A stretch of DNA of 38,152 nucleotides from Leptospiraceae bacterium (GTDB lineage Bacteria; Spirochaetota; Leptospiria; Leptospirales; Leptonemataceae): NCBI GenBank assembly GCA_020441025.1, contig JAGRMX010000001.1, positions 1 to 38,152 on the forward strand. The letters run 5' to 3'. Numbering within the stretch: position 1 is the stretch's first letter; each line of letters begins with the position of its first letter. Below, piece by piece: positions 5,165 through 10,457 of the stretch. Both the position numbers and the translations under genes were made by a program. The notes beneath the pieces were generated by a model that did not search any database, was not told the origin of the DNA, and saw only the letters and a list, made by a program, of their open reading frames with translations.

Positions 5165-6376
5165 TCAAGCCGGAACACGTTTGGTTTCATAGCGCGCAAT
5201 AATCTGTTTTTGAATTTCCGATGTGCCGCCGCCGATTTCCGCCAGTTTGATATCCCGATAAAGACGGCACACCCGGTATTCCTCCATGTAACCCGCACCG
5301 CCATGAATTTGCACCGCCAGGTTGGTTACTTCACGCGCATATGTGGAAGCCATTAATTTGATTTCCGCGGCCCGGGCGGTCAAATCGATAGGATGTCCGT
5401 TGTGCATGTATCGACCGGAGCGTCCGCCCTGTACGCGATGTTCGGCAATGCGGTCGAACAACCAGGCGGTTTCCATCAGCAGCCAGTAAGCCGCTTCATA
5501 TTTCGTGAGAATGTCCGCGAGCATGAAAGCCACGCTCTGGTGTTTGATGATCGGTCGCCCAAAGCTTTTGCGTTCTTTAGCGTAGCGCCGCGAATCTTTG
5601 AAGCAGGCTTCCATTACGCCCACGCTGTAGGCCGCCAGCGCCAATCGTTCCCGGTTGAACGCTTCCATGGTTATGCGAAAACCCTGACCCGGATTCCCCA
5701 GCAGACTTTCGGCTGGAACGGCCACGTCTTCAAAAAATAGCTCTCCGGTCGGCGAAGCCCGCAAGCCCATCTTTTTCATGGGTCGCCCACGGGATACGCC
5801 CGGACTGTTCGCATCTACAATGAAATGAGTTAAGCCGGGTTCGCGGCCGTTCTTCAGTCGCAACCGGGCTAACACCAGAGCGTAATCGCAAATGGGTGCG
5901 TTAGTAATATAAGTTTTCTGGCCGTTCAGCACAAAGCCATCGTCGGTTTCGGTGGCCGTGCAGGTCAGGCGCGAAACATCGGTGCCGGCGGCCGGTTCGG
6001 TGACCGCCAGAGCGCCGATCTTTTTGCCGGTAATTATATCGGGCAGGAACCTTCGCTTCTGATCCGGGCTGCCATAATCCGCGATGGGGCTGCCGAACAA
6101 TCCGGCGGAAGCGCCGGTCGTAAAAAACGTGGAGCCGCAACTGGCTGCCAGAACAATCTGCGCGAGGGTGGCCTGGAAATAACTGGCGCCCTGTCCGCCG
6201 TATTCGGCGTCGTGCAACAGACCCAGGTAACCGTTGGCTCCCAGAGTTGTGAAATGCGATGGCGGTATTTCTCCGTTCTCATCGGCTTCGGCTGCGGCGG
6301 GTTCGATTTCACGCTCACACAGTTTTTTGAATTGGTCTACAAATTCACGATCTTCCGCGCTTAATTCAAAATCCAT
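5165..6376 (-). CDS. Acyl-CoA dehydrogenase
   Basis: 403 aa with the full ACAD architecture. It ends with the typical EIGGGTSEIQKQIIAR motif. GGGAGAG lies upstream of the ATG. Confidence 0.9.
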   Translation of the reverse strand: MDFELSAEDREFVDQFKKLCEREIEPAAAEADENGEIPPSHFTTLGANGYLGLLHDAEYGGQGASYFQATLAQIVLAASCGSTFFTTGASAGLFGSPIADYGSPDQKRRFLPDIITGKKIGALAVTEPAAGTDVSRLTCTATETDDGFVLNGQKTYITNAPICDYALVLARLRLKNGREPGLTHFIVDANSPGVSRGRPMKKMGLRASPTGELFFEDVAVPAESLLGNPGQGFRITMEAFNRERLALAAYSVGVMEACFKDSRRYAKERKSFGRPIIKHQSVAFMLADILTKYEAAYWLLMETAWLFDRIAEHRVQGGRSGRYMHNGHPIDLTARAAEIKLMASTYAREVTNLAVQIHGGAGYMEEYRVCRLYRDIKLAEIGGGTSEIQKQIIARYETKRVPA

Positions 6377-6481: not shown

Positions 6482-7627
6482 TTAAATATTGGCGGCGATA
6501 ATGCTGCGCATCACCTCGGATGTTCCGCCCCCCAGCGTTCCCAGGCGCGCATCGCGATACGATCGTTCGATGGGATACTCGTGAATGAAACAATAGCCGC
6601 CGTGAATCTGGCCCATATCATAAGTGACGTCGATCATGGCTTCGGTGGCATAAACCTTGGCGATAGATGATTCTATGGGTGCCGATTCTCCACGATCTTT
6701 CTTTACGGCGCTTTTATACAGTAGCAGACGGGCCGCATCCAGACGCATGCGCGCCCGTGCGATTTTATCCTGAATGGCCTGGAAACGTACGATCGGTTCG
6801 CCGAATTGCACGCGATTTTTCGCGTACTTCACGGATTGATCGAGTAAATATTGAATGGAACCGATGGCGCTGGCCACCAATACGGTACGTTCCCATTCCA
6901 GAGTAGCGCGCCCGACGCGTACGAAACCGGAATTTTCTTTCGTCAGCAGATTCTCTGCGGGTACTTCCATATCTTCGAAGATCAACTCGCTGGTAGTGCT
7001 GGTGCGCATGCCCATTTTGTTGAGCTTTTTGCCGACGCTGAATCCTTTGAAATCTTTCTCAACAATGAATACCGAAACACCCATGGCGCCTTTTTTCTTA
7101 TCTGTAACGGCCATGACCACGAACACATCACCGATCGGTCCGTTGGTGATGAACATTTTAGACCCGTTCAGCACGTACCGATCGCCTTTTTTTTCCGCTC
7201 GGGTTTCCATGCTGCCGGCTGCGTCACTGCCCGAGCCCGGTTCGGTTAAGCCCAGGCCGGCGGTCCATTCACCGGTGGCCAGTCTGGGAATGTACTTCTG
7301 TTTTTGTTCGGGCGTACCACATAGCACAATCGGCATGGAGCCGATGATGGTATGCGCGCCCCAGGCCAGGGTCACTCCGCCGTCGGTGGCGCCTTCGGCG
7401 AAAGCTTCGGTGGCCACGGTGGTAGTCAGACAATCGGCACCCTGGCCGCCGTACTCCTCCGGAAAGGGCAGACCCAGCAAACCCATTTCACCCATCTTTT
7501 TCCAGATGTCGGCATCCCAGCTGCCCTGCGCGTCGCGTTCTTCGGCGGTGGGCTGCACATAAGTCTGCGCGAACTTTTTGACCATGTCACGAAATTCAAT
7601 GAGATCGGGTGGCAGAGCAAAATTCAT
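6482..7627 (-). CDS. Acyl-CoA dehydrogenase (short/medium-chain type)
   Basis: 381 aa. Motifs include GLLGLPFPEEYGGQG, LTEPGSGSDA and GGGTSEVMRSIIA. The start lies 1 nt after the tetR stop, and the GGAGG RBS sits inside the last tetR codons. Confidence 0.9.
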   Translation of the reverse strand: MNFALPPDLIEFRDMVKKFAQTYVQPTAEERDAQGSWDADIWKKMGEMGLLGLPFPEEYGGQGADCLTTTVATEAFAEGATDGGVTLAWGAHTIIGSMPIVLCGTPEQKQKYIPRLATGEWTAGLGLTEPGSGSDAAGSMETRAEKKGDRYVLNGSKMFITNGPIGDVFVVMAVTDKKKGAMGVSVFIVEKDFKGFSVGKKLNKMGMRTSTTSELIFEDMEVPAENLLTKENSGFVRVGRATLEWERTVLVASAIGSIQYLLDQSVKYAKNRVQFGEPIVRFQAIQDKIARARMRLDAARLLLYKSAVKKDRGESAPIESSIAKVYATEAMIDVTYDMGQIHGGYCFIHEYPIERSYRDARLGTLGGGTSEVMRSIIAANI

Positions 7628-7628
7628 G

Positions 7629-8303
7629 TTAACCTCCGAAACTGCCGCCGTGAATAAAGGCGCGCATATTCCGTTTCACTTCTTTTAACTGACGCGAGTC
7701 CGGTGTGGTGGTTTGATCATAAACACCGGTTACCAGCGCGGTGAGCAACATTTCAATCGCGCCAAAAAACGCGAAACTCAGCAGGCGCGTGTCCGCGTCT
7801 TTAGAAAGCTCTCCGCTGACGATGGCCGCTTGAAAAATATTTTCAATCTGTCCGATTATCCGCCGCACAATCTCCAATTGCGGTAAATCGGGAATATGAT
7901 GTGAGTGTACAATCTCGTGCACCAGAATCTTAATGATGTCCGGTCGAGCGATAAAGGTATCCAGCATGTAGTCCGAAATCTCCGCCAGTTTGTGGGTGGC
8001 CGGTATTTCCTGCGCGCTGATGCGGGCAATACGCTCGCCGAAACGCTCCCATAGATTTTCAAACAGGGAGGAAAGGATGTTCTCCTTGCTGCCGAAATAA
8101 TGATAAACCAGCCCATAAGCCACTCCGGCCTTCTCGGCAATGTCGGAGATGCGGGTATTGTGATAGCCGCGCTCCGCGATTACCTCAATGGCCGCCTGTA
8201 ATATGTCCGATTGGCGTTCCTGACGCTGCCGTCGCCGTAAAGACCCCGGAGGATTGTCCTGCTCCGGTTTTGGGCGCTTCCTGTCTGGCATGGGGCGGGC
8301 CAC
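7629..8303 (-). CDS. TetR/AcrR-family transcriptional regulator (FadR/YsiA-like by context)
   Basis: N-terminal HTH (ILQAAIEVIAERGYHNTRISDIAEKAGVAYGLVYHYFGSKENIL). It is the first gene of the tetR-acd-acd operon. The start is either the GTG at 8303 or the ATG at 8291. Confidence 0.85.
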   Translation of the reverse strand: MARPMPDRKRPKPEQDNPPGSLRRRQRQERQSDILQAAIEVIAERGYHNTRISDIAEKAGVAYGLVYHYFGSKENILSSLFENLWERFGERIARISAQEIPATHKLAEISDYMLDTFIARPDIIKILVHEIVHSHHIPDLPQLEIVRRIIGQIENIFQAAIVSGELSKDADTRLLSFAFFGAIEMLLTALVTGVYDQTTTPDSRQLKEVKRNMRAFIHGGSFGG

Positions 8304-8316
8304 AGCTTCGATTCCC

Positions 8317-8346
8317 GAAAGTTGATTGATTTGTCAATCAACTTTC
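8317..8346. promoter_or_regulatory. Putative TetR operator: perfect 13-bp inverted repeat with a 4-bp spacer
   Basis: GAAAGTTGATTGA (8317-8329), tttg, TCAATCAACTTTC (8334-8346). It lies 14 bp upstream of the tetR start. On the minus strand it contains TTGACA. Confidence 0.55.
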
Positions 8347-8387
8347 GCCCGTTTTGCGATCTCTGCGGAAAGGTTTTCAGCGGGCCC

Positions 8388-8453
8388 GGCTTGCGCGCTT
8401 TTCTTAAAAGGTTTTTCGCCGCTGTGGACTTTCGCCGATCACACGGTACATCC
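8388..8453. repeat. Partial repeat copy A1, matching the 5' part of repeat unit 2
   Basis: 64 of 66 nt are identical to 8809-8874. Identity ends exactly where the P2 loop apex lies in the full copy. Confidence 0.85.
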
Positions 8454-8486
8454 TGTTGCTCGCCTGGTTTGTACGCCTTATATATG

Positions 8487-8590
8487 GATTTCCGGAACGC
8501 AGAGTTTCCGCCGTCGACACGGTGCGTCCTGCACCGGGTCGACGTAAGCCCCGTCCGTGGAGCTTGACGTAAACTCTGTGTCCGGAAATC
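8487..8590. ncRNA. Candidate structured element H1 (three-way junction); transcribed strand unknown
   Basis: P1: 8487-8507 with 8571-8590. P2 outer: 8512-8518 with 8538-8544. P2 inner: 8520-8525 with 8531-8536, loop gtcct. P3: 8547-8552 with 8559-8564, loop gtccgt. Confidence 0.45.
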
Positions 8591-8774
8591 GACCGTACAC
8601 GCGCAAACAGACTCGCGGGGAAATGAGTGTGGGTGGTATGGGTGCTGATGTGCGGGGATAGTAATGTTTTTTTATATTCAGCGTGCGATTTGTCGGTTTG
8701 ATCCGATTCTCCGGCGCGGATTTTGCTATATTTGTACTATAATATGGGGCTGCCCAACCCCTCCCCCTACTTAC

Positions 8775-8783
8775 ATTATAGCA
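8775..8783 (-). promoter_or_regulatory. Possible extended -10 promoter element (TGCTATAAT) on the minus strand, in module B1
   Basis: The plus strand reads attatagca, so the minus strand reads TGCTATAAT, a perfect TGnTATAAT. An identical copy lies at 9104-9112 in B2. There is no convincing -35. Confidence 0.3.
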
Positions 8784-8797
8784 CGACCCTGTGACAC

Positions 8798-9127
8798 GTT
8801 GCTCGCCTGGCTCGCGCGCTTTTCTTAAAAAGTTTTTCGCCGCTGTGGACTTTCGCCGATCACACGGTACATCCGTGTACCGGGTGATCGGAGGCTCCGT
8901 CCCTGGAGCCTGACTCAATTCCACAGCGAGCGAAAAACTACAATCTGCGCGCAAGCAATCTCGCTGTGAATGCACGTTGGTGATATTGGTGCGTTAGTGC
9001 GGGGATAAAAATTCGTTTAACTATTTTCCCTGCGATTCTCTGGCGCGGATTTTGCTATATCTGTATTATAATATGGGGCTGCCCAACCCCTCCCCCTACT
9101 TACATTATAGCACGACCCTGTGACACG
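8798..9127. repeat. Tandem repeat unit 2 (junction 13-mer, fold H2, tail, 88-bp module B2)
   Basis: It starts with the same gttgctcgcctgg. Module B2 (9040-9127) is 85/88 identical to B1. Confidence 0.8.
8831..8939. ncRNA. Candidate structured element H2 (same three-way-junction architecture as H1)
   Basis: P1: 8831-8849 with 8920-8939. P2 outer: 8856-8863 with 8884-8891. P2 inner: 8865-8870 with 8877-8882, loop atccgt. P3: 8893-8898 with 8905-8910, loop gtccct. On the minus strand P1 is followed by TTTTT. Confidence 0.45.
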
Positions 9128-9212
9128 GTGCCGGCCGACAATGGATTCGCAAGTCGGGACGCATGTCGGGAATAAGCGTGGTATTACTGCGTTTGTGCGG
9201 ATAAAAAGTGAG

Positions 9213-9776
9213 TTACTCTTCTACAATCAGCGTAACTACGCGGCGGGCGCGATCATTGTTTTCCATGCTTTCGATATTGCGAACGCGCATGGTAGGCGGC
9301 GCCATATGCCGGGAATGCAGTTCACCATCGGGAGTAAGCATCCAGACCAATCGCACGTAGCCGCCGGCGGTTTGAAATCTAATATAGGCATGCACCTGCT
9401 CGGACCGCGAGCGACCGTACGTAATCCAATGGGCGCTGGTATCGGCCGCGACAATCTCACCTTCGCGTGGAGCGATGTGCCAGACTCCGCTCAATAACCC
9501 GGAAGCGCTGAGCGTTAAATTGGAGGCGGTTCTATTTACTATTACACAACGAACCGATCGTGCTCCGGCCATGGTGACTACCGGTGTTGAAGGCGATTCT
9601 TCGGTAGTCGCCGTTGGTTGTGTCCGGTTCTGCTCTTCGGTTGATTGGCAGCCGGTGACGGTGGCCATAAAAAACAGTCCGACAACGAATACGACCGGAG
9701 CGTGGTGTACATTCAAGCTGAAGATGGATTTCACCTTTACGATACTAAATCCTGAATGTGTTATCGACAAACCCAT
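9213..9776 (-). CDS. Hypothetical lipoprotein, beta-rich
   Basis: Lipobox FFMATVTG-C. A GTG at 9734 would give the cleaner signal peptide MKSIFSLNVHHAPVVFVVGLFFMATVTGC. No family is confidently recognised. Confidence 0.55.
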   Translation of the reverse strand: MGLSITHSGFSIVKVKSIFSLNVHHAPVVFVVGLFFMATVTGCQSTEEQNRTQPTATTEESPSTPVVTMAGARSVRCVIVNRTASNLTLSASGLLSGVWHIAPREGEIVAADTSAHWITYGRSRSEQVHAYIRFQTAGGYVRLVWMLTPDGELHSRHMAPPTMRVRNIESMENNDRARRVVTLIVEE

Positions 9777-10177
9777 TCCGATACGTGTACGGCCGTACCG
9801 CAGTATTCATTGCGGGTACCGGAGGTCGGCTGACAGGGGCCTACTTCCGTTTGCAACGTACCGGTAATCTGAACGTCCTGCGCGCAATCAATCGCATTGT
9901 TGCTGATGAAAATCCATTGGCCGAATTCGGTTTCCCAGTACGATTCGACTTTTTCAAATTGAGTAATGGGATGCTGTAGAACCATCTCCGGACGATGAGC
10001 GCTGAGGCGCACGGACTTCCCATTGCATTGCTGTAGTGCGTCCTTTTTCAGAGTACAGAATTCGTTTTGGGTTTCATTGCCTGCCTGGCAATGTGCAAAT
10101 AAAAACAATGCCACGCAGATACCCAAAGCCTTATGACGAAAGTTGTTTCTATTTGAACTTTTATAATTTATGCGCAT
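9761..10177 (-). CDS. Small secreted cysteine-containing protein (138 aa)
   Basis: The internal ATG at 10177 (MRINYKSS...) is preceded by AAGGAA. Signal peptide ALGICVALFLFAHCQA. The longer track ORF (to 10375) has an implausible N-terminus. Confidence 0.5.
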   Translation of the reverse strand: MRINYKSSNRNNFRHKALGICVALFLFAHCQAGNETQNEFCTLKKDALQQCNGKSVRLSAHRPEMVLQHPITQFEKVESYWETEFGQWIFISNNAIDCAQDVQITGTLQTEVGPCQPTSGTRNEYCGTAVHVSEWVCR

Positions 10178-10457
10178 GATTCGTTCCTTTCGTTCCGGAA
10201 AAAGTAGATATCCCTGATTGCCAAAACCGAGAAGAAGGCATTGTTTTGAGATGAGTTCTGAGCTTCGAGAGAAATTATGCGTCAAAATTTGTAAATCAAA
10301 TAACCGCTCTCTCGTGTGTGATTGCTTGATGGCAGCGATTTGAGCATGTTTATGATTTGAATCAGCCCGGCGCAAACATGAAATGATTGCTCACAGAATA
10401 CCGGAATTGCATATGATACCGGCCATTATAACAGACCACTATAACAGAGGTACAATT

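Follow-up and report, generated by a model that had tools for sequence, protein, structure and literature searches.

Paired GGA loops in a dispersed TwoAYGGAY-type repeat of a Leptospiraceae bacterium: candidate docking sites for CsrA

We analyzed a 38,152-nucleotide (nt) stretch of DNA, hereafter the window, from a Leptospiraceae bacterium (assembly GCA_020441025.1, contig JAGRMX010000001.1, positions 1 to 38,152). Positions 8380-9126 of the window are not a unique leader; they hold two tandem units and one truncated unit of a mosaic repeat of ~320 nt. On the minus strand, each tandem unit contains a three-way junction with GGA in the loops of its two hairpins. Very probably, the repeat is a TwoAYGGAY-type structured element whose functional strand is the minus strand. 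For the loops, our preferred explanation, to which we assign a probability of about 0.5, is that they are docking sites for CsrA, which would hold or titrate the protein. That explanation builds on the loop consensus, the conservation of the loops through full turnover of the stems, the strand bias, a parallel with flagellin leaders, and the clan relationship of the motif. The repeat is a modestly new instance of a known motif class. What is new here is the lineage, which has a FliW-type CsrA system, together with extra modules around the junction and a quantified placement of the junction, with a convergent gene ending ~30 nt away.

Paired GGA loops in a covarying junction

The minus strand folds into a three-way junction at H1 (8487-8590), with a free energy of -62.7 kcal/mol (z = -8.5), and again at H2 (8831-8939), with -65.4 kcal/mol (z = -8.8). 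Each z score was computed from 200 dinucleotide shuffles, none of which folded as well as the corresponding junction (0/200 each). A junction comprises a basal stem (P1), a long hairpin (P2), and a short hairpin (P3), located as follows.

8484-8594, minus strand: H1 three-way junction (fold; 107.8 bits with covariance model R1, introduced below)
8487-8507 with 8570-8590, minus strand: P1 of H1 (fold)
8512-8544, minus strand: P2 of H1, loop AGGAC at 8530-8526 (fold)
8545-8566, minus strand: P3 of H1, loop ACGGAC at 8558-8553 (fold)
8829-8942, minus strand: H2 three-way junction (fold; 115.8 bits with R1)
8831-8849 with 8920-8939, minus strand: P1 of H2 (fold)
8856-8891, minus strand: P2 of H2, loop ACGGAU at 8876-8871 (fold)
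8892-8911, minus strand: P3 of H2, loop AGGGAC at 8904-8899 (fold)

An earlier note, made from the sequence of this DNA, had read the four minus-strand loops as ACGGAU, AGGGAC, AGGAC, and ACGGAC, and the folds agree with all four readings; in the minimum-energy fold of the H2 P2 loop, the A-U pair is closed, leaving CGGA. The note was also right about a UUUUU run behind the closing stem of H2 on that strand (8831-8827) and in cautioning that GGA is not enriched overall, since the minus strand of 8384-9136 holds 15 GGA triplets against 15.3 expected. The strict motif CA(N)GGANG occurs five times on the minus strand between 8449 and 8905, compared with a window-wide rate of ~0.63 per kb per strand. 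Within one junction, the two GGA triplets lie 27-28 nt apart.

To characterize the junction across copies, we aligned 18 paralogous junctions from the host genome that had been gathered by a strand-neutral sequence search. Standard pairs fill 96.1% of the pair cells in this alignment. The figure was 75.3% when pairing partners were shuffled, and 36-47% of cells paired when the partners were slid by 1-3 columns. Compensatory changes affecting both sides were seen at 26 of 42 pairs. The loops behave differently from the stems. CA(N)GGANG was retained in 34 of the 36 loops (18/18 in the long hairpin and 16/18 in the short one), its outer C and G form an invariant closing pair, and the long hairpin carries a conserved 1x1 internal loop. 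The earlier note had asked whether related loci keep GGA in the loops; both loops do, in the paralogs as well as in other genera, while the stems turn over.

The same alignment was used to compare the two strands. The minus strand folded better in 15 of the 18 paralogs, with summed energies of -1216 versus -1128 kcal/mol. For the consensus fold, the minus strand gave 42 pairs and -60.5 kcal/mol, compared with 33 pairs and -39.5 kcal/mol for the plus strand. Furthermore, the helix cells of the minus strand contained 47 G·U pairs versus 10 A·C combinations, and every G·U pair common to several copies was on the minus side. Taken together, strand folding, consensus energy, and the G·U comparison indicate that a single strand is under selection and that it is the strand showing GGA. 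Both RNA and single-stranded DNA are compatible with these data.

Repeat architecture and kinship with TwoAYGGAY

In the host genome, whose assembly comprises 743 contigs and is 68% complete, an iterated nhmmer search returned 52 matches to the repeat on ~38 contigs, many of them at contig ends. The array in the window is made up of the following parts.

8380-8457, minus strand: truncated repeat copy (nhmmer 8385-8457 to repeat positions 1-74; 96% identical to 8805-8874)
8458-8797, minus strand: repeat unit 1 (nhmmer 8463-8797, repeat positions 1-321, E = 4.9e-82)
8798-9126, minus strand: repeat unit 2, full length (nhmmer 8806-9126, repeat positions 1-321, E = 2.3e-97)
8704-8797 in unit 1 and a second copy at 9033-9126, no strand assigned: Y module of ~95 nt (94% identical direct repeat; alignment)
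8820-8831, minus strand: A/U-rich linker between P1 and the X hairpin, minus-strand sequence UUUUUAAGAAAA, plus-strand sequence UUUUCUUAAAAA (sequence)

Along the plus strand, a unit runs from the X end through an A/T-rich linker, the three-way junction, a mid hairpin, and a T-rich tract to the Y module. The X end reads (G)CTCG-CCYGGTTTGCGCGC on the plus strand, and the mid hairpin contains GCGCGCAAAC, which is able to pair with it. Most paralogs have a T-rich and then an A-rich linker at the same place. Such a linker could supply a pair of U tracts, set back to back, for two opposed terminators, of which the X hairpin would serve the abutting gene and P1 would serve the GGA-sense RNA. The Y module varies almost not at all among copies, and its end has been lost by truncation in many of them. 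On the minus strand it carries an extended -10-like box, TGCTATAAT, at 8783-8775 and 9112-9104. On its plus strand, the Y module also has a sigma-54-like -24/-12 box at 8712-8727 and 9041-9056. This box reads TGGCGCGGATTTTGCT (CGGCGC... in unit 1), has the -24/-12 spacing of sigma-54 promoters, and is kept in most copies. It is directed away from its own junction and did not fit our model of the mechanism; rpoN is present in the genome (G000:C284).

The copies fall into at least five subfamilies, whose stems are wholly different in sequence but retain their pairing. Chimeric or nested copies also occur, and several of these break exactly at the P2 loop. The truncated copy in the window does the same: in the GGA sense, it retains only the 3' half of the structure (the 3' arms of P2 and P1, the A/U-rich linker, and the X end), and a remnant of the loop, CAGGAUG, remains at 8455-8449. 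The P2 loop thus looks like a recombination hot spot. Nested or chimeric copies were found at G000:C66:3302-3676, C144:10818-11179, C633:527-974, C237:4309-4550, C410:11835-11965, and C236:172-382. In some nested copies, an inner junction substitutes for the 3' half of the outer one directly after the P2 loop; one nested or chimeric copy has an internal duplication in P2, and another has two P1 3' arms. In DNA contigs from activated-sludge and wastewater runs, summed depth was higher over the repeat, and the contigs were broken and gave no informative joints.

A BLAST search of the repeat against 40 related genomes gave no match, and this includes the X end, the mid hairpin, and the Y module. 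The junction itself, however, has relatives. With the covariance model R1, which was built from the minus-strand junction, we obtained full-length matches with E values down to 1e-14. Of the 41 other genomes examined from the family, 14 had such a match at E ≤0.01, representing seven other genera, and 13 had one at E ≤0.001. Single or double copies were also detected in seven of 39 genomes of one genus in a sister family, and the remaining genomes of the phylum-wide sample, which lie outside the order, had no R1 match. Homologs from other genera have basal stems unrelated in sequence to those of the window copies, while CA(N)GGANG persists in both of their loops. In 21 of 24 relatives, folding is better in the GGA sense, a bias that may be inflated because R1 was built on the minus strand. 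Weaker R1 matches (36-41 bits) came from L135 (G043:C69), as four hits at 445494-457602; in L135, the match falls within a 557-codon open frame, and these weaker matches may be false positives or a coding repeat.

These homologs connect the repeat to TwoAYGGAY (RF01731). An Rfam search of the window returned no family at the gathering threshold and, at E ≤10, only chance-level hits, with no TwoAYGGAY among them. Since the window copies themselves gave no match, the link to RF01731 runs through their homologs. One sister-family copy, which R1 connects to the window copies, matched RF01731 over its full length with 45.7 bits, above the gathering threshold of 43 bits. Other copies of the repeat in the host genome scored below that threshold, at 41.2 (C225), 37.7 (C633), 35, 32.3, and 28 bits, as did copies from the relatives L126 (40.2 bits) and L145 (38.2 bits). 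All of these matches covered the whole model, and all were in the GGA orientation. As in TwoAYGGAY, a basal stem is followed by a short and then a long hairpin (alignment over Rfam model positions 1-168), and the loops align to those of the Rfam consensus, CAuGGAUG in the short hairpin and CaUGGAuGG in the long one. The repeat also resembles TwoAYGGAY in being multicopy and clustered, with lineage-specific flanking repeats and a highly variable copy number. It differs in several respects. Only two of the four window loops are strict AYGGAY (ACGGAU and ACGGAC, not AGGGAC and AGGAC), the extra modules (X end, mid hairpin, and Y module) have no match in relatives, and a distance of ~30 nt separates the junction from the point where a convergent gene ends. 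The lineage is different as well, as the table of Weinberg et al. lists human gut, Gammaproteobacteria, and Clostridiales (PMC2864571). We regard the window copies as a diverged branch of the known motif. As other identities that the shape might suggest, we considered a hammerhead or other ribozyme, a retron msr/msd, an integron attC site, group II intron ends, and an IS110 bridge RNA; these were dropped, as there was no Rfam match and the contexts did not fit.

Placement at gene 3' ends

The repeat has a precise seat relative to neighboring genes. For 20 of 27 array ends, a co-oriented open frame of at least 80 codons ends right before the repeat, whose plus-strand start follows the stop codon by 0-3 nt. 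These stop codons vary between loci, as do the few bases of spacer, and thus both belong to the genes rather than to the repeat. The Y end has been truncated at many points, and the gene that it faces is usually on the opposite strand. With the X end at a stop codon and the Y end facing an opposite-strand gene, the element sits between convergent genes. Read in the GGA sense, the junction is 3' terminal and lies ~30 nt from the 3' end of the facing gene in the host genome. In other genera, the gap between the junction and the convergent stop codon is 11-46 nt (eleven junctions), and in the sister family, the junction lies 24-27 nt from the 3' end of tRNA-His. The spacing is kept beside a tRNA gene too, so translation does not determine it. 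The sister-family genus carries one or two copies at this fixed site beside a tRNA cluster, in seven of the 39 genomes sampled. At two such loci (L146:1490-2100 and L145:1400-1620), the cluster is tRNA-Pro/Arg/His; between the tandem copies, a ~22-nt 3' fragment of tRNA-His is duplicated, and another conserved segment there includes a sequence resembling a tRNA T arm.

Several of these properties recall the REP/BIME, ERIC, BOX, and Correia-type elements, which are likewise dispersed, mosaic, strongly folding, located between convergent genes, and often found right after stop codons. In contrast to REP/BIME-type elements, the repeat described here contains a ~110-nt three-way junction with sequence-specific conserved loops, and its structure has been kept across genera while the sequence was replaced. 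It also lacks terminal inverted repeats (the ends, GCTCGCC... and ...CCTGTGACAC, are unrelated), and there was no target duplication or spare gene end, as the flanks share nothing above shuffled controls. Neither a Y1 (RAYT-type) transposase nor a reverse transcriptase was found in the host genome, whose 68% completeness makes all of these absences weak evidence.

Proposed CsrA docking and competing explanations

The host encodes the protein that such loops are proposed to bind. In line with a check proposed in the earlier note, we found csrA (C4:7638-7793, 87 bits) with fliW directly upstream (fliW-csrA, C4:7638-8185), a gene order that is the partner-switch arrangement. The RsmE/CsrA consensus is A/U-CANGGANG-U/A, and the CA(N)GGANG loops equal it. 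They also match the core of RUACARGGAUGU, the consensus from systematic evolution of ligands by exponential enrichment (SELEX). One CsrA dimer can bridge sites 27-28 nt apart. In addition, all three flagellin genes of the host genome have leaders with CANGGANG in a predicted hairpin loop that lies at the ribosome-binding site or a little upstream of it, and the loop of one of them, CUGGC-AGGGAC-GCCGG, is identical to that of H2 P3. These flagellin genes start at G000:C104 2309 (minus strand) and at C420 494 and 1760 (plus strand), and their leaders are expected CsrA targets; the second of the two on C420 is followed ~190 nt downstream by the start of a repeat copy. In Leptospira, CsrA binds GGA hexaloops in flaB leaders (PMC8668096, where the SELEX consensus RUACARGGAUGU is quoted). 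No csrB or csrC homolog is known there, and FliW is the presumed antagonist (PMC8668096, PMC4863578).

The fold, its covariation, the conserved loops, the strand bias, the kinship with TwoAYGGAY, and the fliW-csrA pair are observed features; we infer that the module may be transcribed, may bind CsrA, and may have a regulatory effect. In the mechanism that we propose, the functional folded strand would be the minus (GGA) strand, on which the module consists of a long basal stem followed by a short and then a long hairpin, each hairpin ending in C-A-(N)-G-G-A-N-G. The module would probably be the 3'-terminal structure of a minus-strand transcript. Such a transcript might start in the Y module or at a co-directional upstream gene, and it would end at P1 and a tract rich in U, shortly before reaching the 3' end of the facing gene. 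The two loops, at their spacing of 27-28 nt, would most likely let one CsrA dimer dock on both, and transcripts bearing the module would thereby hold or titrate CsrA. If the junction does bind CsrA, organisms of the FliW type, here in a spirochaete-like lineage, would also have RNA decoys, and TwoAYGGAY, which was catalogued without a function, would gain a role. The fixed position relative to gene 3' ends, which is found across genera and for both protein and tRNA genes, is a clue to how the element spreads or affects its neighbors.

The idea that TwoAYGGAY RNAs bind CsrA has precedents. The 2010 description of the motif, which drew on human gut, Gammaproteobacteria, and Clostridiales, assigned no function (Weinberg et al. 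2010, PMC2864571). A 2015 paper noted that its loops match the CsrA site and suggested that it acts as a decoy (PMC4333381). Extended forms have been reported in Pseudomonadota, where CsrA binding was raised and the Csr/Rsm idea was left open (bioRxiv 10.64898/2026.09.22.753630). For Leptospira biflexa, a "CsrA-like ncRNA" has been mentioned with no coordinates (PMC4863578). Given the 2015 proposal and this mention, the idea in the earlier note, which knew of no such RNA described in the lineage, is not new. That note had suggested a Csr-type sponge or leader. The fit of the loops to the CsrA/RsmE consensus speaks for its suggestion, as does kinship with CsrB, with which RF01731 shares the Rfam clan CL00106; a dense sponge of the CsrB kind is not what we found, and neither is a leader of the adjacent operon (see below). 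The decoy RNAs CsrB (RF00018), CsrC, and RsmX/Y/Z (clan CL00106) likewise present GGA in short hairpin loops and are proposed to hold CsrA dimers. CsrB has 18-22 GGA sites on one RNA. The repeat offers two consensus sites per unit and shows no enrichment of GGA. Its sites are scattered across dozens of loci rather than one or a few genes, no dedicated promoter was recognized, and the known antagonist in the FliW-type CsrA system of the host is a protein.

A number of observations weigh against CsrA docking. In two paralogs (on C351 and C264), the short-hairpin loop has CGA instead of GGA, and CGA also occurs in the short-hairpin loop of copies from three relatives; this change should weaken CsrA binding. 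Outside the two loops, GGA is not enriched. All 26 high-quality genomes of the family have csrA, and finding it together with the motif is therefore uninformative. A promoter scan found no two-hexamer sigma-70 promoter, the extended -10-like box being the sole minus-strand signal, and the U tracts are weak in some subfamilies, with a clear U tract after P1 in some subfamilies only. In the literature, binding of CsrA to TwoAYGGAY RNA has been proposed, and we found no demonstration of it. Finally, the expansion in copy number, the chimeric copies, and the fixed placement at gene ends resemble a mobile element, and the loops could serve a factor for its propagation. The possible inflation of the strand bias in relatives, noted above, belongs with these points.

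The last of these points leads to an explanation that we consider possible, though with clearly less than even odds. The loops of the structured repeat may serve the element itself or a protein other than CsrA, for instance as recognition sites, in folded single-stranded DNA or RNA, for the factor that copies the element. CsrA would then be irrelevant, and the effect on the cell would be that of a terminator or insulator only. Such a self-serving element would account for the ~50 matches on ~38 contigs, many at contig ends, for the tandem, nested, and chimeric copies that break exactly at the P2 loop, for one end that is fixed and another truncated at many points, and for the precise seat at gene 3' ends in several genera. 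It is also compatible with the tolerated CGA variants of the short-hairpin loop and has a parallel in Pseudomonas, where TwoAYGGAY copy number is hugely variable and the motif behaves like a mobile element (bioRxiv 10.64898/2026.09.22.753630). The lack of terminal inverted repeats, target duplications, and spare gene ends argues the other way, as does the failure to find a Y1 transposase or reverse transcriptase, within the limits of the incomplete genome. The single-copy, syntenic loci of the sister family look like resident genes rather than active mobile DNA. Moreover, the loop motif is that of the Rfam consensus, which was built from distant phyla, and the same motif in distant phyla is more easily explained by a universal host protein than by a lineage-specific mobility factor. 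CsrA docking and mobility can also be combined. In this broader scenario, which we hold to be unlikely as a whole, a self-spreading TwoAYGGAY-type module would have placed dozens of paired CsrA docking sites at transcript ends in a lineage in which CsrA is checked by FliW. Convergent or read-through transcription would set free CsrA, the module would be targeted in an undescribed manner to positions ~30 nt away from stop codons or the 3' ends of tRNAs, and it would provide terminators in both directions.

Two further explanations concern the genes next to the repeat. It is quite improbable that the plus (UCC) strand is the working RNA, as the 3' untranslated end or terminator of the abutting gene, with CCUCC-like loops that mimic anti-Shine-Dalgarno or anti-GGA sequences. 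The abutment on co-oriented stop codons at 20 of 27 array ends would suit this arrangement, and so would the relatives, in which the junction follows a co-oriented stop codon or tRNA 3' end by 11-46 nt. Also in the plus sense, the X end is able to fold into a small GC hairpin with a U tract behind it, and a T run follows one copy in a relative. However, the plus strand folds worse in 15 of the 18 paralogs, where the 47 minus-strand G·U cells become A·C mismatches, and the Rfam model matches the minus orientation only. If the X hairpin did terminate the upstream gene, the junction would be left out of that transcript. The other explanation, a CsrA-controlled cis-acting leader of the tetR-acd-acd operon in the window, was one option raised in the earlier note, and the distribution of the family brings it close to refuted. 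The repeat does lie upstream of the operon in the same orientation, and, as the note stated, the minus strand is the coding strand of these genes (7629-8303, 6482-7627, and 5165-6376). Yet the nearest GGA loop (8526-8530) is ~220 nt from the tetR start at 8303, and none overlaps a ribosome-binding site. Between the array and tetR lies a palindrome resembling a TetR operator, presumably along with the promoter. The same unit also occupies at least 25 unrelated loci; nearly all of them are flanked by convergent genes, and the unit there normally faces a gene 3' end. The locus in the window is an exception in that its X end faces the tetR promoter region.

The surroundings of the array hold other features. 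On the far side from tetR, the 1.2 kb at 9137-10382 contains orphan frames only. A 187-amino-acid (aa) frame (9213-9776, minus strand) had no relative in a large protein collection or in 40 related genomes, and a 204-aa frame (9761-10375, minus strand) gave only a sub-threshold antirestriction hit. On the near side, the operon encodes a TetR protein (the frame at 7629-8303 matches TetR_N) and two acyl-CoA dehydrogenases. Between the array and the tetR start is a perfect 14-4-14 palindrome at 8316-8347 (CGAAAGTTGATTGA / TCAATCAACTTTCG), whose arms are 100% complementary and which is probably the TetR operator of tetR-acd-acd rather than part of the repeat.

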